Source of the DNA: Octopus vulgaris
Lineage: Eukaryota
Assembly (NCBI GenBank): GCA_951406725.2
Contig: OX597832.1
Span: 66,650,001 to 66,714,000, forward strand
Reading direction: 5' to 3'
DNA length: 64,000 nucleotides
The notes below the pieces were generated by a model. That model was not told the origin of the DNA, made no database searches, and saw only the letters and a list, made by a program, of their open reading frames with translations. A program made the position numbers and the translations under genes. Below are positions 7,850 to 62,948 of this stretch, in pieces. Each line of letters starts with the position of its first letter. Positions within the stretch are counted from its first letter, which is position 1.

Positions 7850-10800
7850 CAGGCAGAGTGGACCTTTCATAGGTTAAAAAAGAAATGAATAAATAAATAA
7901 AAAGAAGAAGGGAAAACTATGCCCGGAGATAAAACTATCAACAAAAAAAATACAGACGAATACAGATCTGCTAGCCATAAGAAGCTGCGCTACGAACAAC
8001 ATTTACGTGCAGAGAATCCTAAACTGACAGATCCGTCTCTTAATGTAAGAGTCGAAGCTCGTCATGCTTCAATGTCAACAAAACAACCCACAATCCGAAA
8101 AGGTCGGCGAGCGGACTACAAAAGACCACGTACCCGAAAATTGAACCAAAGTCTGATTGAAAAATCAGCTACTGGAGCAAATCTTCACGACACACAGGAG
8201 CTGGACGTACCCCGCAACTGGAATATTCCAACAGATGGCCATCCATGCTCGTCACCAAACACTCAAAAGAAAAAGAAGGAAAAATGGACTAGGGAAGATA
8301 ATAAAGAAGTTCTTGCGGCCTTCTACCATGCCATATATTTCCCCACAGATAAATCGAACACTATACAAACCTACATAAACTGGAGACAGAAACACCCTGA
8401 AGTAAGACCCTACATAGACAGTAACAAACTTGCCAACGTCAGAAGAAACATTATAAAAAAAAAATTACTGACTGAAGTAGAGATTGATCAAATTAGACAA
8501 GCAGTAACGGATAGAATGAACGAAGCTGCAGCTAGAGAAGATAATACAGAGGAAATAATTATAGACCAGCTCAGAGCTAATAAAAATGAAGTAAGGATTG
8601 AAAGAGTTACTATAAATGATAGGCAAAGTGAAATACTCCCTGAACCAATCATAAACACTAAGACAGATGAACATCAAATAGATGAAGAAAGTCACACAAA
8701 TATTGACCCGACAGAACTACATGAGTTAAAAAGTCAAATCATGATTGAATGGCTGAAAATTAAAGAAACCAGTATGGATGAACGTGATACACCCCCTAAA
8801 ATCCGCAACTCTAACCAAAACATGAAAATAATTGGTAAAACCCGGCTTGTACTTAAGGATATAATTTCAGCTAATGATGTTGATATCACAGATCTCAACC
8901 ACCTATACTATGCCTCCGCGAAAATCTCAACGATCCTATGTGGTGAAAAGATTAGAAAACGGCAAATTTCCACAAAAAGCCTTCTTGGCAAGAGCGTTTG
9001 CAACAACAAATTAAACTATTTGGATCTGAACATTGAATATTTGAAAAACCTTAAGGTTCATAAGACTACCAAACCTATAAAAACCCCAAAACTAATGAAA
9101 AAATATAATATGAAAACTATACTTGATATTGATGCCACCATAGAAACCATCAAGCAAAAGGTATCTGCTAAAGCTGCCCGCATAGCGAGGTATGAAAAGA
9201 ATGTTAGATTCTTCAGGGACAACAACATGTTCAAAAATAAACCAAAAAATTTTTACAAGAAGATAGGAAAAAAAACAGTTACTGTAAAGTCTGTACCATC
9301 AAAAGAAGAAGTGCAGGGATTTTGGAATAAAATTTGGGCAGAAGAAAAAAAACACAGCGAAAAGGCCCCCTGGATTGATAGAATATCTAAAGAACTGGAC
9401 TCCTTAGAAGAGCAAAAGTGGGAAGGTGTCAAGGTAGAAGATACAAGATCTGCTCTCAGGAGGTCAAGCAAATGGAAGTCTCCAGGAAAGGATAAAATAC
9501 CTAACTTTTGGTTGAATGCCTTCCAGAGAGCCATGAACTGCTAACATAACTTTACAATGATGTTTTGCAACACCCTAGTAGGATGCCTCCTTGGCTAGTT
9601 AATGGGTTAACATTCCTGCTTCCAAAAAGTGAAGATACAAATGAACCAAAAAACTATAGACCCATAACCTGCTTAACTACTATGTATAAAACACTAGGAA
9701 TATACCTATAGTTTTTTGACAGACAGCAGCATATTCCCTAATGAACAGAAAGGATGTAAACGTGGATCCTACGGTTGTAGAAATCAACAACTCATCAATA
9801 AGATTATCTTAGAAGATTGTCACAAACGACACAAAAACTTATCAATAGCTTTTGATAGCCTACCACATAGCTGGATTAAGAAATGCCTAGAAATGTATAA
9901 GATAGCACCTGCTCTGCGAAACTTTTTGTCTGTAAGTATGAGATCATGGAGAACCACACTAACTTTGAACAGTGACAATGAATCTCTAAATGCTGGTGAT
10001 GTAAACATTTCATGTGGCATTTTCCAGGGTGACTCACTATCACCACTCCTCTTCTGTTTAGCCTTAATACCTCTCTCAAAACTGCTCAATGACGCGTAGT
10101 ACGGATATAAAATGTTTGACAAAAATATAAATCATCTCTTTTACATGGATGATTTAAAGCTCTTTGCAAAAAATGACCAACAACTCAAGGGCTTACTAGC
10201 GATTGTCAAACAATTTAGTGATGACATCAGAATGCAATTTGGCCTCGATAAGTGTGCAAAAGCAATCTTTATCAAAGGAAAAAATGACAGAAACATCTAA
10301 CGTTAACCTTGACCAGCAGAATGTCATAAAAGAATTAGACCCAGCAGAGAACTACAAGTATCTAGGGGTAATTGAATGAGAAGGAATAAGGCATTCAGAG
10401 ATGAAGGAAAGGATCAGGAGAGAATGTTATCGCAGAGTAAGAGCAATACTCAAGACAGAGCTGAATGCAAGAAACAGGATCGAAGCGATCAATGCATTAG
10501 CTATACCAGTTGTGACTTACAGTTTCAATATCGTTAACTGGTCAATTACTGAAATATGTAATCTTGACAGAAAAATACGAAAACTGTTGACAATGCATAG
10601 AATGCACCACTCTAAGGCAGATACAGAACGACTTTATCTGCCAAGAAAAGAGGGAGGCCGTGGACTTTTACAACTGGCAATAACAATAAAGTTTACTACA
10701 ATTGGCCTAGACACCTACCTGAAAAGCTCTGAGGACTGGATGTTAAAACTTGTCTCAAAACATGAAAACAAGAAAGTATCATACTCAGTAACAAAACAGG

Positions 10801-11899
10801 CAAAGGAATATATAAGTGAATTCCGAATTCAACAAATTTCGGAATTAGAGATAGACATACAAGAAACAGGCACAGAAAAAGCTAAGCGCATGAAAACCCG
10901 TGCTAAATCTGCGGCCTTAGATATTCTGAATGATAAATGGCAAGAAAAACCTCTCTATGGCAAATACCCAAAAAAAGAGCAAATAATGCTGATATTGACA
11001 AAGCCCACACCCATCAATGGCTAATGGCCTCTGGCTTAAAATCTGAAACAGAGGGGTTTATCATAGCAGCTCAAGATCAATGCCTACCAACAAGAAACTA
11101 CCAGCCAACATATTAAAGATCAGAAGCAGTCCAACGTATCGTGTATGCCAGCAACAAAATGAAACCATTGACCACGTGGTCTCCAAGTGCAGTCTTCTAG
11201 TGCCTTCAGAGTATCTCAACAGACACAATAGAGCTGCACAATCTATTCACTGGGTAATCTGCAAAAACCTGGATTTGCACCATGAAAAAACTGGTGGGAA
11301 TACAAACCACCCCCAGTGCTTGAAAATGACCACATCTCACTCCTCTGGAACTTCACCATTCAAACTGACAGAAAGATAGATGCAAATAGACCAGACATCA
11401 TATTGAAAGACTTCAAACAAAGAACATGCCTCCTCATTGATATGACTGTCCCAATCGATATAAACGTATCTGTCAAGACCTACCAAAAACTGAGCAAATA
11501 TAAAGATCTTGAAATAGAAATCAGCAAAATGTGGAAGCTGAAGACTAAAACAATACCTGTTGTCATAGGTGCCCTGGGAATGATAGCAAAAGGGGCTGAT
11601 AGCTACCTAACTCAGATACCAGGAAACCCCCAAATGGCAGAAATTCAAAAGATAGTGCTCATGGGAACTGCTCATATCCTACGCAAAATACTTTCTATGT
11701 TTAAAACAAACATAATTTTCGGTTTTTAAAAAAATTTTTTTTTCTTAGACATTCATTAGTACAACACCAAAAACTCCCCCCCCCCCAATATATGGCACAC
11801 TAGGCATAACAACAACATGAACTTCCTACCTGTTGTCTCTTAAGGTCTCTGGGTGAGACTTGGAGCCAACTTGTACAAATATAAAGCAAGTCAAACATA

Positions 11900-11900
<1 letters not shown>
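7850..11900 (+). mobile_element. Near full-length, inactivated R4/Dong-clade non-LTR retrotransposon (RT + CCHC + restriction-like endonuclease)
   Basis: N-terminal KWTREDNKEV motif; KWKSPGKDKIPNFWL; NYRPITCL; EQKGCKRGSYGC; AFDSLPHSWI; GIFQGDSLSPLLFCLALIPLS; HLFYMDDLKLFAK; RLYLPRKEGGRGL; (C>Y)RVC...ETIDHVVSKC...RHN; RPDIILKD...LIDMTVP...KLSKYKDL. The single ORF is broken into pieces 7919-9544, 9716-10099, 10112-10300, 10401-11024, 11080-11379 and 11316-11729. The 3' end abuts (AAT)n at 11901; the 5' boundary is uncertain. Confidence 0.93.
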
Positions 11901-11941
<41 letters not shown>

Positions 11942-11978
11942 TAATAATACCACCACCATCACCAACATCACAACCACC

Positions 11979-12009
<31 letters not shown>

Positions 12010-12011
12010 GC

Positions 12012-12085
<74 letters not shown>

Positions 12086-12135
12086 TAATAATAATAATAA
12101 TAATGCTAATAATAATAATAATAATGATAATAATA
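11901..12135. repeat. (AAT)n tract with (ACC)n/(AAC)n interruption at the 3' junction of the Dong-like element
   Basis: Seen directly. Confidence 0.97.
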
Positions 12136-12289
12136 TTGAGACATGATTTTATTTGAAGAAAGGATTGCTAAAAAGAGAAGGGCGGCTAAAAGGAGAAGGA
12201 CGACTAGAAAGCGAAAGATAGTTAAAAGTAGCAGCACGACAATATGTATTGAAGATAAAATGTATAAAAGCAAAGGTAGACAATAATTA

Positions 12290-13050
12290 GCTAGATTCCC
12301 AATGTGAATTAAATTTCTTCCAGCTTTGGATTTCCTGGTATACGAGAGAGATAACATTCAGCCACTTTTGCTATTATTCCTACGCTACCTATGTCAATAG
12401 GTATTCTTTTAGCCTTCGGGTTCCACATTTTGCCAACTTGTCTTTCGAGGTCCTTATATTTGCTGAGTTTTTCGTAAGTCTTGGCACATTTATTTATGTT
12501 GATTGGGACAATCATATCGATGAGGAGACATGGTTTTTCTCTGAAGTCCTTTAATATAATGTTTGGCAAATTTGCATCTAGCTTTCTGTCAGTTTGAACA
12601 GTAAAGTTCCAAAGAATTGAGATGTGATCATTTTCAAGCATCCGTTTTTATCCTATATACTGTTCCACTCTAACATACCCGTTGAGATACTCAGTTGCAA
12701 GGACAAAATACAACCGATGTTTCAGTTTTCTGGCTGTTTACTCATACAATAAGTTGGGCTTTTGCCGTTCTTTAAGATGTTGGCCTCGTATCTCCTTGTA
12801 GGAAGGCATTAATCCTTAGTTGCTATGATAAACCCTTGAGTCTCTGATTTTATGCAAGAAGATACTAACTATTGATGGGTAAGAACTTTTGTCAAAATCA
12901 GCATTATTAACTCTCCTTCGGTATTTGCCATAGAGAGGTTTTTCTTGCCATTTATCAGTAAGAATATTTAAGGCAGTAGTTGCTACTTATTTTGTTGCTG
13001 AGTGTACAGCTCTCTTGTTTTGATGCTTTCTGAAAAGATTTAGCACGATG
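12290..13050 (-). mobile_element. Older, internally deleted inverted copy of the same R4/Dong family (3' part)
   Basis: ORF 12309..12641 (LENDHISILWNFTVQTDRKLDANLPNIILKDF...KLSKYKDLE) aligns to 11316..11729; upstream DKWQEKPLYGKY homology near 12920-12960. Confidence 0.92.
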
Positions 13051-29945: not shown

Positions 29946-30016
<71 letters not shown>

Positions 30017-30117
30017 GGAGTAAACAAATAAATGTGAAACAAGGTGGAAAAAGAGTACTCAAATACCAGTGGTAGAGTAATATGCTTTATTTTAAGCAGC
30101 AGAAAATTCAACAAGAT

Positions 30118-30155
30118 CTGTTACTCTGAGTTTCTCGTTGCCGTTCATCAGACAG
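30118..30155 (-). ncRNA. Minimal type I hammerhead ribozyme motif (PLE1 left arm)
   Basis: Minus strand CTGT-CTGATGA-ACGGCAACGA-GAAA-CTCAGAG-TA-ACAG: stem I CTGT/ACAG, core CUGAUGA/GAAA, near-palindromic stem III, GUA cleavage triplet. Confidence 0.8.
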
Positions 30156-31151
30156 TTTTTGCTAGAATGGAACTTATATATTAATTCAATCTATACTCTT
30201 ACAAACGCTACACCTTTAAAAAGAAATGGACTTGTTTGATTGGCCCTTTAGAAAAAACGGTCAATCTTCGAGCGATAAACAAAAAGGTCAAAAATATATG
30301 TATATATATATAAAAAAACTTATAAAAATTATAAAACTTATAAAATCCGAGGAAAAAACCGAGGAAAAAACCTATTGCCGTTAATGAAGACAGTACAAAT
30401 TAATGCATAGAAATTAAACCTGTTATAAATACTGCAATACATATTTATATTAAAATCCACATATATATATCAACATACACAAAAGGATGCGCGTAAACGC
30501 CATACATACATATACAGACGTATGAATATGAATCTAAATTATACACATAAAAGCATGTGTACATATATTCACGCAAACCGTCTCGCACGCAAGCTAAAAT
30601 TCATCTATGTAGCAATTCTCATATACTGAGCAAGGAGGGGGAACGAAAGAAAGGGAAAGAGAGAAAAAGGAACGAAGGAGGGGTGGGGAAAAACTTGTAG
30701 CGATATTATTGGCATCTATAGAGGCCAGTATACATACACAAGTTTGAATTGATACATATACATACCGTCGTGTGTATGCGTGCTTAAGCACAAGCATACT
30801 TTCACTTACACATACACAGATACGCATGCTTACAAATACATATGCTTTGCTATACACATACTTATATAAACATTCTAATTTTGACAACATTGCTTTTAAA
30901 AAATGGGTGCATTATTAAAAATATATACGAAAGACATATAAAATAAAATATAACATCCTATTTTGGGTCATTTATAAATAATCAAGGTAATATAAATAAT
31001 CAAGGTAATCCTATTCAATACAATAACATGAAAACAAAGTTTGTAGGTTTTTCCTAATATATATGTAGAAACAATAAGACTTTGCTATAGATCCGTCGTA
31101 GCGCTCAAGATTCAAAATCAAAATCAAAAATCAAAATACAAAATATATACT

Positions 31152-31466
31152 CTATCCATATGGTATATTTATATTCGACATTTTAAATTTAGCCGCGTGC
31201 CTACATAAGTTCATTAACTCACTTCTTTGATTCAAAGAATTATTGTCTTTGAATAATATGTGCATTTTCTCTAATAAGCAAAGCCTGCACTTGAAATTAT
31301 ATTTGTAAGCTCCATGCCTGTATGGTGCCGCCCTGTCCAGAATGCTCCATGTCACGTTGAAAGGTGGGGCTTCCTTTTCTTTTAGTTCCCAGACATATTT
31401 TGCTAGGCTGATTTTCTTCCTATTCTCTGGGTATTTAAAAGAATTCTTATGAGAATAAAATCTCAT
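31152..31466 (-). pseudogene. C-terminal fragment of a PLE GIY-YIG endonuclease (Naiad-like motif pattern)
   Basis: RFYSHKNSF...LAKYVWELK...VTWSIL..A.PY...CRLCLLEKMHIL...LNQRSELMNLCRH. The frame is open up to the inversion junction. Clade assignment is from recollection of motifs. Confidence 0.8.
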
Positions 31467-32515
31467 AAAATGTCGAATATAAATATACCATATGGATAGA
31501 GTATATATTTTGTATTTTGATTTTTGATTTTGATTTTGAATCTTGAGCGCTACGACGGATCTATAGCAAAGTCTTATTGTTTCTACATATATATTAGGAA
31601 AAACCTACAAACTTCGTTTTCATGTTATTGTATTGCATAGGATTACCTTGATTATTTATATTACCTTGATTATTTATAAATGACCCAAAATAGGATGTTA
31701 TATTTTATTTTATATGTCTTTCGTATATATTTTTAATAATGCACCCATTTTTAAAAGCAATGTTTTTCTTTAAAAAAAGCAATGTTGTCAAAATTAGAAT
31801 GTTTATATAAGTATGTGTATAGCAAAGCATATGTATTTGTAAGCATGCGTATCTGTGTGTGTGTAAGTGAAAGTATGCTTGTGCTTAAGCACGCATACAC
31901 ACGATGGTATGTATATGTATCAATTCAAACTTGTGTATGTATACTGGCCTCTATAGATGCCAATAATATCGCTACAAGTTTTCCCCACCCCTCCTTCGTT
32001 CCTTTTTCTCTCTTTCCCTTTCTTTCGTTCCCCCTCCTTGCTCAGTATATGAGAATTGCTACATAGATGAATTTTAGCTTGCGTGCGAGACGGTTTGCGT
32101 GAATATATGTACACATGCTTTTATGTGTATAATTTAGATTCATATTCATACGTCTGTATATGTATGTATGGCGTTTACGCGCATCCTTTTGTGTATGTTG
32201 ATATATATATGTGGATTTTAATATAAATATGTATTGCAGTATTTATAACAGGTTTAATTTCTATGCATTAATTTGTACTGTCTTCATTAACGGCAATAGG
32301 TTTTTTCCTCGGTTTTTTCCTCGGATTTTATAAGTTTTATAATTTTTATAAGTTTTTTTATATATATATACATATATTTTTGACCTTTTTGTTTATCGCT
32401 CGAAGATTGACCGTTTTTTCTAAAGGGCCAATCAAACAAGTCCATTTCTTTTTAAAGGTGTAGCGTTTGTAAGAGTATAGATTGAATTAATATATAAGTT
32501 CCATTCTAGCAAAAA

Positions 32516-32553
32516 CTGTCTGATGAACGGCAACGAGAAACTCAGAGTAACAG
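32516..32553 (+). ncRNA. Minimal type I hammerhead ribozyme motif (PLE1 right arm)
   Basis: CTGTCTGATGAACGGCAACGAGAAACTCAGAGTAACAG, identical to the left-arm copy. Confidence 0.8.
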
Positions 32554-32590
32554 ATTTTGTTGAATTTTCTGCTGCTTAAAATAAAGTATA

Positions 32591-32668
<78 letters not shown>

Positions 32669-32676
32669 ATTTACGT

Positions 32677-32734
32677 AAAGAATTATTAACTTCCCATTCT
32701 CTATTTTCATTTTCTTCTTTTAGAGATGTTTGTA

Positions 32735-32778
<44 letters not shown>

Positions 32779-32841
32779 ATGCATACAAACATCTCTAAAA
32801 GAAGAAAATGAAAATAGAGAATGGGAAGTTAATAATTCTTT
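32677..32841. repeat. Perfect palindrome: ~62-bp unique arms around a (TA)n centre
   Basis: AAAGAATTATTAACTTCCCATTCTCTATTTTCATTTTCTTCTTTTAGAGATGTTTGTATGC and its exact reverse complement. Confidence 0.97.
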
Positions 32842-57410: not shown

Positions 57411-57509
<99 letters not shown>

Positions 57510-57633
57510 TAAAAGTAATTCCAACCTTGTCTGATTTTCACGTTTTATTTACAATCTTATAATGATATAATATAATATAATATAATATAATATAATAAAA
57601 TAAAATAATAGAATGTTAAACGTTCATTCTGAT

Positions 57634-57678
57634 TGAACTAGTACTTTCATGCATTAAATTCTGCAATCTTCAGGTTCA
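57634..57678 (-). ncRNA. Type I hammerhead ribozyme motif (PLE2 left arm)
   Basis: TGAAC-CTGAAGA-TTGCAGAATTTAATGCAT-GAAA-GTAC-TA-GTTCA: stem I TGAAC/GTTCA, stem II TGCA/TGCA, palindromic stem III. Confidence 0.8.
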
Positions 57679-58109
57679 TATAGTAGTAGTGACAGTCATG
57701 CTTCACAATTTTTGACTGTAGCGAGATGATTGAATCTGTGCTTTAAATACAGCTGTGTAGGCTCCAGATGCTAGGTTTTGCAAACTGTATTCTGACCAAT
57801 CAGTGTGTAGTATCACTCAATTACTTAAGCTGATTGGTTGGTTGAGCTGATTGGTTGGTTGAGCTAATTGGTTTAGGCGTCACGCTTTGTTGGACATGTC
57901 AGACGTCCTGTATCTTGACCCTGGCCGAAGCAGCAATTGTTGGGCTATTTTTAGAAATGGTGTAAATAGCCTTTGTCAGAGATTTTTATATTTTTATATT
58001 TCAATTTTTCATCATCATCATTGTCAGCACCTTAATTATTGTTGCTAGTGATGGCAATATAACTTTTAACCCTAAATAAGATATATTTCCTGCTATCTAA
58101 GTATTATTA

Positions 58110-59214
58110 TTATTGCTTATTTAGCTTGGGTTCCAATTTATCAATAACATTCTTTTCTCTGATTTTCCTCTCGATTTCACTTGGGCTGTGTAATTTGTAG
58201 AATGGAAATATTATATATATATTCCGGCCACATGTTTCTAGGTGGTTACTCAAAGGTATCTCACGGACCTCTGGGTCTCTAATATGTTGTCGGTGTACAC
58301 GTGAACGTTCTGGTAGTGCGTTTCCCGTCTGACATAATATATATTTCTTCACAATTCGGGCATTTTGATGCAGTAACTTAAATTTCTGCTTTTGCAGTTC
58401 ATATTCGCGTTTGTGAATATTTTCCCGGTTTTTGTGTTTATATATTGGCCGGTATGTATGAATTGGCATGTGCCACATCGGCTATCATTGCATTTAGATA
58501 CAGTGAATGTTTGGTCTTTGTTGCTAAGGTCAAATTTTGCCTTTGTTAGTAATTTTTGCAAGCTTTTAGGCTGTCTTTTACTAAGCACCATAGCTCGATC
58601 CGTGATTATGTCTTTTAATTCATTATTTTGGGCAATGATTGGTAGGTTTGCTTTGGTTGAAGATATTCTAGTGACATGGGTTGTGTGTCATTATGAATGG
58701 TATGACTTGATGTTGTTTCCTTTTTCTTGGGTTGTCCTACGTTGTTGTATGGGTATTTTTAGAGCCCGCTGTATGCCATTTTCTATAAGTAGAGATGGGT
58801 ATTTTTGTTTGAGCAGAACTTCTCTTGGTTTTATTAGGCGTTTGTTCCTGATATTTGCATCTTCTATAATGGTACAAATTCTTCTGGCTAGGCAGTATGG
58901 GATGTTGCGTTTTGTATGTGGTGGATGGCACGACTTAAAATTTAGGTATTGATGTGTGTCTGTGTGTTTATAGAATATATCTGTGGTGATGGTGGTGTCT
59001 TTTTTAATTACCATTATATCTAGGAATGGTAATTTGGTACTACTCATCCCCTTTGTAAATTGGAGAGAAGGGTGTAGGTTGTTCAGGAGGATATTGAAAT
59101 CTTCCAGAGTATTTAGAGATTCTGTCCAGATTATGAAGCAGTCGTCAAGGTATCTCTTCCATGCCTTTTCAATATACTTACTATATCCAGTGTCATAGTT
59201 TACCTCCACCTCTT
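58110..59214 (-). pseudogene. PLE RT C-terminus/thumb, Cys linker and GIY-YIG endonuclease (frameshifted)
   Basis: WKRYLDDCFIIW; LPFLDIMV; TDIFYKHTDTHQYLNFKSCHPPHTKRNIPY; KCNDSRCGTC; MNCKSRNL.YCIKCPNC; ERSRVHR; REKNVIDKLEPKLN. Confidence 0.92.
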
Positions 59215-59530
59215 GGAAAATATTCACAAACGCGAATATGAACTGCAAAAGCAGAAATTTAATTTACTGCATCAAATGCCCGAATTGTGAAGAAATATAT
59301 GTAGGTCAGACGGGAAACGCACTATCAGAACGTTCACGTGTACACCGACGACAGATTAGAGACCCAGAGGTCTGTGAGATACATTTAAGTAACCACCTAG
59401 CAACATGTGGCCGGAAAATTTAAATAATATTCCCATTCTAAAAATTACACAGCCCAAGTGAAATCGAGAGGAAAATCAGAGAAAATAATTTTATTGATAA
59501 ATTGGAACCCAAGCTAAATAAGCAATAATA
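59215..59530 (+). pseudogene. Inverted second copy of the GIY-YIG domain
   Basis: MNCKSRNLIYCIKCPNCEEIYVGQTGNALSERSRVHR; premature stops. Confidence 0.9.
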
Positions 59531-59749
59531 ATAAAACTTAGATAGCAGGAAATATATCTTATTTAGGTTTAAAAGTTATATTGCCATCACTAGCAACAAT
59601 AATTAAGGTGCTGACAATGATGATGATGACAATTGAAATATAAAATATAAAAATCTCTGACAAAGGCTATTTACAACATTTCGAAAAATAGCCCAACAAT
59701 TGCTGCTTCGGCCAGGGTCAAGATACAGGACTCTTGACATGTCCAACAA

Positions 59750-59910
59750 ATCGTGACGCCTAAACCAATCAGCTCAACCAACCAATCAGCTTAAGTAATT
59801 GAGTGATACTACACACTGATTGGTCAAAATACAGTTTGCAAAACCTAGCATCTGGAGCCTACACAGCTGTATTTAAAGCACATATTCAATCATCTCGCTA
59901 CAGTCAAAAA
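59750..59910 (+). promoter_or_regulatory. Putative pseudo-LTR Pol II promoter (mirror copy at ~57710-57885, minus strand)
   Basis: GTGACG, two tandem CCAATCAGC boxes plus a reversed CTGATTGG, then TATTTAAA (~59870) and an Inr-like TACAGTC ~30 nt downstream, just before the hammerhead. Confidence 0.45.
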
Positions 59911-59940
59911 TTGTGAAGCATGACTGTCACCACTACTACA

Positions 59941-59985
59941 TGAACCTGAAGATTGCAGAATTTAATGCATGAAAGTTCTAGTTCA
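59941..59985 (+). ncRNA. Hammerhead motif (PLE2 right arm), stem III palindrome mutated GTAC>GTTC
   Basis: TGAACCTGAAGATTGCAGAATTTAATGCATGAAAGTTCTAGTTCA. Confidence 0.7.
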
Positions 59986-60136
59986 ATCAGAATGAACATT
60001 TAACATTCTATTATTTTATTTTATTATATTATATTATATTATGTTATCTTATATCATTATAAAAGTGTAAATAAAACGTGAAAATCAATGTTGGAATTCC
60101 TTTTATTAATATATTCTTCTATACACAATCACACCC

Positions 60137-62248: not shown

Positions 62249-62302
<54 letters not shown>

Positions 62303-62307
<5 letters not shown>

Positions 62308-62635
62308 TTAAGGGTAGAAATCAATATTTATCAATTAAAACCAGTGGTCTTGCATATTAAAAAAAAGAATCCGAAGATTAAATATTTATATATACCAATT
62401 AAGGACTGACGAAGACTGACGAAGACTACGGGTATCCTTACGGATAATAATAGTCGAAACTGATTCAGTACATGGATGAGTATTGTTTTTCGTATATTTT
62501 CACTTGTTTATTGCTTGGGTTGGTGTTGAGTTTGATCTGAGAACATAATCTTTTGTGGAGAATGGCGATTTGACGTCTTTATTTAGCATGTTGACTGTCC
62601 ACTTTTTCGTGTTCAGTCCTTAATTGGTATATATA
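62303..62635. mobile_element. Miniature non-coding fold-back element with hammerhead core, between (TA)n tracts
   Basis: Perfect inverted repeat TATATATACCAATTAAGGACTGA (62387-62409 / 62613-62635), ~85-nt tail left of the left arm, and an internal hammerhead core. Confidence 0.7.
62416..62475 (+). ncRNA. Hammerhead core with long stem II; 5' strand of stem I apparently lost
   Basis: CTGACGA-A-GACTA...(TATCC/GGATA)...TAGTC-GAAA-CTGATTCAG-TA-CATGG; upstream is a 10-bp duplication GACTGACGAA rather than CCATG. Confidence 0.65.
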
Positions 62636-62948
62636 TATATATATGACTTAAGCAGTAGAAGTTGATTCATTAAGTTGGTGAAACAAATGAAACTAGAAGT
62701 AAGGCAGAAAATATACTAAGGTATATAGCGCTACACATTTAAGTATATCATGATTTAATTTTGAAACCTATCTAGCTAAACAACAATTTGTCCTTCGTCT
62801 TGCACCCGATATATGAAAAGAAACTGTGTGGTTACGGAAATCAACGAATACACATAAATACATGCATGCATACGTCCGTTCATACATACATACATAAATG
62901 CATACATACATAAATGCATACATGCATAAATGCATACATACATATATA

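Follow-up and report, generated by a model that had tools for sequence, protein, structure and literature searches.

An inverted, truncated retrozyme insertion in a (TA)n microsatellite of Octopus vulgaris, probably written by a PLE enzyme acting in trans

Metazoan non-LTR retrozymes, as described by Cervera and de la Pena (2020, PMC7229834), are non-coding, low-GC tandem monomers of about 170-400 nt, each with a type I hammerhead ribozyme; they are strongly self-paired and dispersed in many copies. Their cleavage and circular RNA have been shown, and PLEs were proposed as their mobiliser from the ribozyme type, the tandem form and co-occurrence. Li, Clavereau and Pollet (bioRxiv 10.64898/2026.07.22.740005) treat retrozymes as non-autonomous PLE derivatives. 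Their tandem hammerhead units, with family lengths of 51-972 bp, co-occur with PLEs as monomers, dimers and multimers in 35 species, no mollusc being among the classes named, and the evidence is homology to the terminal repeats (pLTRs) of PLEs, with cases in Xenopus. Only one of nine predicted Xenopus dimers was cleaved. In these two sources, PLE mobilisation of animal retrozymes has hitherto been argued from co-occurrence and pLTR homology.

Insertions of endonuclease-positive PLEs of the Hydra clade were described by Craig et al. (2021, PMC8557442). They are inverted and 5'-truncated, often have a tail of 30-40 bp at one end, target (TA)n and carry a hammerhead near the 3' end. The same paper reports Naiad and other (TA)n-targeting PLEs from octopus genomes, and places non-autonomous Chlamys elements, e.g. 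MRC1, in a clade without canonical hammerheads. A mechanism is available for PAc Poseidon (Frangieh et al., 2024, PMC11167929), where in vitro work showed cleavage and extension of both strands by the PLE enzyme, with two internal start sites delimiting the tail and RNA left uncut serving as the template; priming is reported to need no target homology, and the start sites do not differ between the strands.

Here, we compare with these systems a 333-bp fold-back in Octopus vulgaris, found at positions 62303-62635 of the 64,000-nt stretch that we analyzed as a whole (hereafter, the window). Its parts are listed below, sites 1 and 2 being fixed 3' ends about 90 nt apart.

62251-62302, no strand: (TA)n target microsatellite on the left, in direct contact with the inverted arm at its site-2 (tail) end
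62303-62386, minus strand: inverted 84-nt tail, spanning the monomer from one fixed 3' end (site 1) to the other (site 2), with site 2 outermost
62340-62348, minus strand: ACCACTGGT within the tail
62387-62409, minus strand: short inverted arm, 23 bp; the site-2 arm halts just beyond site 1
62404-62423, plus strand: inversion junction, a 4-nt CTGA microhomology with a 10-bp tandem duplication
62416-62470, plus strand: core of a type I hammerhead, including stems II and III; the cut is predicted to follow 62470, and this copy to be inactive
62471-62627, plus strand: monomer 5' region up to the fixed 3' end site 1; 62471-62475 is the 3' strand of stem I
62613-62635, plus strand: second arm, ending at site 1; its own TA run merges into the host (TA)n
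62628-62644, no strand: right (TA)n target microsatellite

An initial annotation, made from the letters of the window, had described most of this anatomy, and we recovered all of it: (TA)n followed by a tail of ~85 nt (84 by our count), perfect 23-bp inverted arms with 8 bp of TA repeat, a hammerhead core, ~140 nt before the second arm (142 nt counted from the predicted cut), and a 10-bp duplication in place of stem I (units at 62404-62413 and 62414-62423). The core reads CTGACGA, a 5-bp stem II, GAAA, stem III and GTA; a strict hammerhead motif scan of the window returned position 62416 only. The junction deletes the 5' strand of stem I, whose place is taken by the duplication, so stem I does not close and the ribozyme of this copy is predicted to be dead. 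The junction 17-mer has two matches in the genome, the second of which is an unrelated 2-nt insertion; hence it is seen as a junction only here. The annotation was right to place the junction at CTGA in this copy, but a special role of the position is not supported: none of the 84 fold-back breakpoints surveyed below fell there in the first mapping.

The arm 19-mer has 1,855 exact matches in the genome and none for the reversed control, meaning that the family is not due to chance. The first 100 matches comprise 50 loci, which extrapolates to roughly 900. In a search of the octopus genome with 62303-62635 (1,445 candidates, 40 scored), many matches cover the query from 114 to 333 and then the reverse of 1-107. 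Therefore, the tail normally trails the arm on the sense strand, directly after it in other copies, and the order in the window copy is rearranged. The flanks of the matches contain tandem monomers of 505-512 bp, each with an intact stem I hammerhead, and complete-hammerhead units form arrays, e.g. at loci L033, L061, L073, and L080. The pattern of intact stem I plus core (A/B motif) has 552 genome matches, while two tail-motif patterns, with 1,832 and 678 matches, expose the older subfamilies C and D. Monomers of subfamilies A, B, B2, and C are 510, 505, 512, and 534 bp long, respectively, and mutually 71-94% alike. They are non-coding, the longest ATG ORF being 44 or 60 aa, and have a GC content of 33-34%, under the 45% used to define retrozymes. 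The window copy represents a single insertion, inverted and truncated, of this 505-534-bp tandem monomer and not the unit of the element; in itself, it is ordinary debris.

In an alignment of 17 ribozyme copies, including the window copy, 97% of 314 cells are paired, compared to 27-40% in slid controls, and 10 of 19 pairs are doubly changed, across all four helices; the copies are related by descent, so shuffle counts are not probabilities here. CUGANGA, GAAA, UH, and three covarying stems, the marks of a type I hammerhead, are all present at the family level. Rfam came back empty, with no hammerhead on the intact dimer at E<=10 and no hammerhead family among the 150 of 205 matches listed for the window. 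For this reason the ribozyme call, including that of the core at 62416-62470, rests on the core motif and covariation, from which we predict that the family carries a self-cutting type I hammerhead. The initial annotation named outcomes that would speak against its reading, namely fixed TIR boundaries matching a Tc1/mariner partner or a single-copy motif without covariation; what we see is 1,855 matches and the doubly changed pairs. The fold extends beyond the ribozyme. The whole B monomer folds at z=-7.4, with 0 of 100 shuffles as low, and RNAalifold applied to 11 copies of five subfamilies recovered the three-way junction along with long-range helices; of the 89 predicted pairs, 32 are doubly changed. 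The monomer RNA is, by these figures, highly self-paired.

By its sequence, the family thus fits the definition of a non-LTR retrozyme. Like the retrozymes of PMC7229834, it consists of many dispersed, non-coding, low-GC tandem monomers with type I hammerheads, and a U-U pair at the base of stem II, which we found in subfamilies C and D, was described there for axolotl HHR_Amex2. On the other hand, the monomer of 505-534 nt exceeds the 170-400 nt given there, while falling inside the 51-972 bp of bioRxiv 10.64898/2026.07.22.740005, and, among the listed records that contain the family, none is recorded as RNA. Contigs from four presumed-RNA runs include one of 535 nt, i.e. the monomer plus 30, which has the shape of a closed assembly cycle, although tandem DNA gives the same shape; an A>G/T>C excess in these contigs may be subfamily variation.

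Some copies show peculiarities of their own. In family D (L189, L192, L195, L129), ribozymes have a minimal palindromic stem III and CCGA for CTGA in five of the six motifs found, two of which represent a duplicated locus. Two loci of this family, L195 and L196, lie about 65 kb apart on contig C1 and are identical over the 358 bp printed, which is likely a segmental duplication or an assembly duplicate. At L018 (1655-1680), a 2-nt insertion sits exactly at the predicted cut and could be a ligation or template-jump scar.

To characterize insertions, we mapped to natural monomers all 50 loci behind the first 100 19-mer matches in genome order; all are on one contig, and each necessarily contains the search 19-mer. 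Forty-two loci are fold-backs and eight are direct copies, with (TA)n on both sides in 46 of the 50. Outer ends fall at two fixed sites, ~160 and ~250 nt past the predicted cut, each adjoining a TA-rich run. Site 1 is paired with site 2 in 41 of 42 fold-backs; the remaining one pairs site 2 with a shorter other end, and same-site fold-backs, detectable with the 19-mer pattern used, number zero. Seven of the eight direct copies end at site 1, and all 32 tail read-throughs continue into the next monomer. Arms range from about 36 to 2,148 bp and inner breakpoints vary, but the apex is symmetric to within 10 nt in 23 of 42 fold-backs, compared to a mean of 5.7 and a maximum of 13 in 10,000 shuffles; several of these apexes lie at short palindromes. 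Breakpoints are not enriched at the predicted cut (0/84, with the divergent L032, L034, L043, L059, L072, and L075 mapping poorly to the subfamily-B reference). The site-2 arm halts near site 1 (monomer positions 137-166) at five of the 42 fold-back loci, as well as in the window copy. The initial annotation asked whether copies are attached to PLE ORFs or free-standing; by tblastn with PLE peptides, none of the 50 loci is fused to such an ORF. The RT and GIY-YIG ORF of an autonomous PLE is missing from these loci. The traits of PLE-type insertion are present: two fixed 3' ends bounding a tail, the tail at one end only (41 of 42 fold-backs), inverted 5'-truncated copies, tandem structure, and a microsatellite target. 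Compared to Hydra-clade PLEs (PMC8557442), the family has no ORF, its tail is about 90 nt long rather than 30-40 bp, and its stem II is longer. We also observed, at L006, L007, L043, L044, L129, L206, and L221, that retrozyme and Hydra copies are often nested in or adjoin each other's (TA)n; therefore, these microsatellites gather repeated insertions.

The window itself contains two PLE copies:

30016-32591, plus strand: PLE1, truncated fold-back of a young Hydra-clade PLE family, in the site-2/site-1 layout; candidate enzyme donor
57507-60133 (approximate bounds), plus strand: PLE2, an older PLE in fold-back form, with pieces of RT and of a C-terminal GIY-YIG and a minimal hammerhead

PLE2 has a cysteine-rich linker and a 33-nt one-sided tail, and may be Neptune-like. 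The minimal hammerhead motifs of both elements were found by eye. The PLE1 family is very abundant, with 98-100% protein identity and many 727-aa open frames (150 scored of 13,175 candidates). As Pfam returned no match on the PLE pieces or the 727-aa ORF, the Hydra label relies on the RWK, DKT, and CxxC/CxH motifs of the protein, compared by eye with those given for Hydra in PMC8557442. The unit of the PLE1 family is 3,354 bp long, and L131 (5102-7282) is a fold-back of two full-length copies. The initial annotation saw in the 333-bp fold-back the PLE layout at about one-eighth scale. Indeed, PLE1 is 7.7 times longer and has the same fold-back with a one-sided tail; still, the layout of the 333-bp copy is not that of its element.

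In the PLE1 family, ten fold-backs with both outer ends visible pair site 1 with site 2, none is same-site, and four more pair site 1 with an unclassed tail-bearing end; for PLE2, the count is three of three site 1 with site 2, both sets having been picked by BLAST rank or ORF length and not at random. Since the autonomous PLEs of the window share the footprint of the retrozyme, a PLE enzyme that primes from both target ends is the likely agent of insertion. We conclude that the 333-bp stretch is very probably an inverted, truncated retrozyme insertion, written into (TA)n, likely by a PLE enzyme in trans. Of the two options offered in the initial annotation, a non-autonomous ribozyme-bearing family with a PLE insertion footprint holds at the level of the family, and an extreme truncation product describes the window copy, as a truncation plus inversion of that family. 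What can be read directly from the genome is the tandem monomer, the covarying ribozyme, two fixed 3' ends, (TA)n targets, one site per arm, varying inner breakpoints, and no attached ORF.

The way the insertion was made can be proposed as follows. The PLE endonuclease would cut both strands of (TA)n, and each DNA end would prime reverse transcription at a site of its own, site 2 for one and site 1 for the other; both sites adjoin a short TA-rich stretch of the RNA. Head-to-head joining of the two cDNAs would follow, in many cases at microhomologies or short palindromes. The site-2 cDNA of the window copy would have halted just beyond site 1, while the site-1 cDNA would have run through the uncut ribozyme up to CTGA, where the joining, with a 10-nt slip, would have removed stem I. 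Halting of the site-2 arm near site 1 would be expected if the second primer blocks it, and resembles twin priming of L1. The census fits priming from both target ends, one site each. PAc Poseidon (PMC11167929) offers a parallel in its two start sites bounding the tail, the cutting and extension of both strands, and the uncut template; by contrast, both sites here adjoin TA-rich runs, and each insertion end has its own site, whereas in PAc Poseidon priming goes without target homology and start sites show no strand difference.

The template would likely be one RNA, a circle or an uncut multimer. Opposite arms within a locus differ by 1.0%, compared to 4.2% between loci, although the closest of the other loci is frequently no more distant than the opposite arm. 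We then considered sequence variants in 77 given loci, dropping rows with less than 94.5% identity to the reference, so that single-locus variants are private among those 77. Variants common to other loci are carried by every covering unit in 46 cases and by some of the units in 13; of the single-locus variants, 12 are in all units, nine of these in both arms. Shared variants have no ADAR-type A>G signature (2/58). The near-identical arms and mostly all-or-none variants favor one template unit copied repeatedly, as by a circle, with a uniform linear multimer or template jumping as possible alternatives. Mosaic arrays, with some variants in 2/3, 3/5 or 4/5 units, are not explained by a single circle without later local duplication. 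Unlike the units of bioRxiv 10.64898/2026.07.22.740005, multimers here appear to be made at insertion.

One may go further and suppose an old retrozyme lineage of five subfamilies with a conserved fold of the whole monomer, which would parasitise Hydra-clade PLE enzymes via its short tail hairpin and not be a fragment of its partner, each insertion arising from a single RNA circle by asymmetric twin priming, with one fixed site for each cut DNA end. We advance this only tentatively, as the odds seem to be against it. If true, it would give direct genomic evidence of animal retrozyme RNA returning to DNA, and for the origin of PLE fold-backs and one-sided tails.

A different course of events, with the same family and enzyme class, would be a single priming at site 2, followed by snap-back of the cDNA and copy-back to the first TA run, that is, site 1. 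The symmetric apexes, several of them at short palindromes, and the near-identity of the two arms would agree with it. However, in the window copy and at L036, L045, L046, L050, L073, L074, and L080, the site-1 arm exceeds the site-2 arm in length and therefore cannot be its copy. Moreover, the direct copies ending at site 1 indicate that site 1 primes alone, yet none of the 42 fold-backs has site 1 at both ends. We consider snap-back unlikely as the general explanation, although some of the symmetric copies may have arisen in this way; our preferred reading remains priming from both target ends.

Even less probable, in our opinion, is that the monomer is the pLTR of an unfound autonomous PLE, with arrays grown locally by unequal crossing over, a scenario discussed in bioRxiv 10.64898/2026.07.22.740005. 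Mosaic variants in few arrays would agree with it, our comparison covered three PLE families only, and one family-D copy is joined directly to a truncated Hydra ORF fragment: at L189 (1045-1800), a retrozyme fold-back meets, without (TA)n, a 5'-truncated ORF fragment of the older Hydra family. This fusion occurs at one of 30 D loci and at one of 30 older-Hydra loci, the two being the same place, so that the 29 other copies of this Hydra family lack it, and it is possibly a template-switch chimera. Against the scenario, all tail read-throughs enter the next monomer, whereas PLE1 copies read from the tail into the ORF; multimers occur in both inverted arms with the same variants; and covariation of the fold beyond the ribozyme extends across subfamilies of 71-94% similarity. 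Whereas the published argument uses pLTR homology, we detected no homologous pLTR among the three PLE families: nhmmer with a four-monomer profile had no match on the PLE1 unit at E<=1 and none on the PLE2 copy of the window. With PLE1, the monomer has only a motif of 8-9 nt in common, unlike a deletion derivative of a Hydra-clade element. Nor did we find an autonomous parent by tblastn with PLE2 and PLE1-fragment peptides (L001-L080) or with the full PLE1 protein (retrozyme loci), by two tail-motif pattern searches, in 30 older-Hydra loci, or by nhmmer; tblastn matches at L032, L039, L072, and L125 fall in flanking sequence.

The perfect 23-bp inverted arms and TA flanks also suggest a MITE moved by a Tc1/mariner transposase, but the census rules this out, showing neither fixed symmetric TIRs nor uniform length: arms and inner breakpoints vary, the two outer ends are unlike, eight of the 50 copies have no inverted arm, and the family has tandem multimers and a covarying ribozyme. 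The initial annotation had correctly warned of a look-alike. A dedicated miniature 333-bp family with a junction fixed at CTGA would have in its favor a few top BLAST matches with junctions near CTGA, selected for their likeness to the query, and two of eight direct copies starting at CTGA or 3 nt ahead of it; it is ruled out just as firmly by the variable breakpoints, none of them at CTGA in fold-backs of the first mapping, and by the window junction being unique.

Returning to the PLE enzyme acting in trans, the footprint does not name the donor, as site 1 with site 2 is common to PLE1 and PLE2. A one-sided tail was dropped as a Hydra marker, since PLE2 shows one, too. The initial annotation had pointed to a word common to the retrozyme and PLE1 tails (CCAGTGGT at 30066 and 62341). 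The word is indeed present, but as a sign of partnership it is weak, because a shared word of at least nine letters arises in 363 of 5,000 shuffles (7%). No 8-mer other than the core of ACCACTGGT is invariant across the tails of subfamilies A-D; this core also occurs in the Hydra-clade PLE1 tail, compared to 124 of 20,000 shuffled PLE1 tails; PLE2 lacks the motif, and the older Hydra family has a one-base variant. Copies are about 98.8% similar in PLE1, 97.9% (median) among the subfamily-B-mapped retrozymes, and 96.4% in PLE2, all three figures coming from biased samples; by this measure, PLE1 and young retrozyme copies seem to be of similar age and PLE2 older. Hydra elements target (TA)n (PMC8557442). 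Within a comparison of three PLE families, the young Hydra-clade PLE1 is the most likely, if unproven, donor, with the chances about evenly balanced.

The family is a newly described non-LTR retrozyme, while the kind of element is already known. Our search of the openly accessible literature returned no cephalopod retrozyme, no PLE twin priming, no previous record of the family, and no one-site-per-end rule for retrozymes. To the arguments from co-occurrence and pLTR homology the family adds a measured, countable insertion footprint (41/42 fold-backs, one start site per end) that matches that of neighboring autonomous PLEs. With a compact natural RNA as substrate and a young enzyme as candidate, twin priming and circle-templating become testable in vitro. 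In addition, short copies of such elements can be mis-annotated as TA-flanked MITEs, and Rfam misses them.

Two other regions of the window are worth mentioning. Positions 7901-12640 contain long ORF pieces with a weak RVT_1 match (9698-10096) and an inverted repeat of 80% (11317-11648 and 12309-12640), and are probably a decayed retroelement. Just right of PLE1, positions 32690-32828 form a near-perfect palindrome centered on a (TA)n run; Rfam miRNA matches there are below the gathering score and look like microsatellite artefacts.
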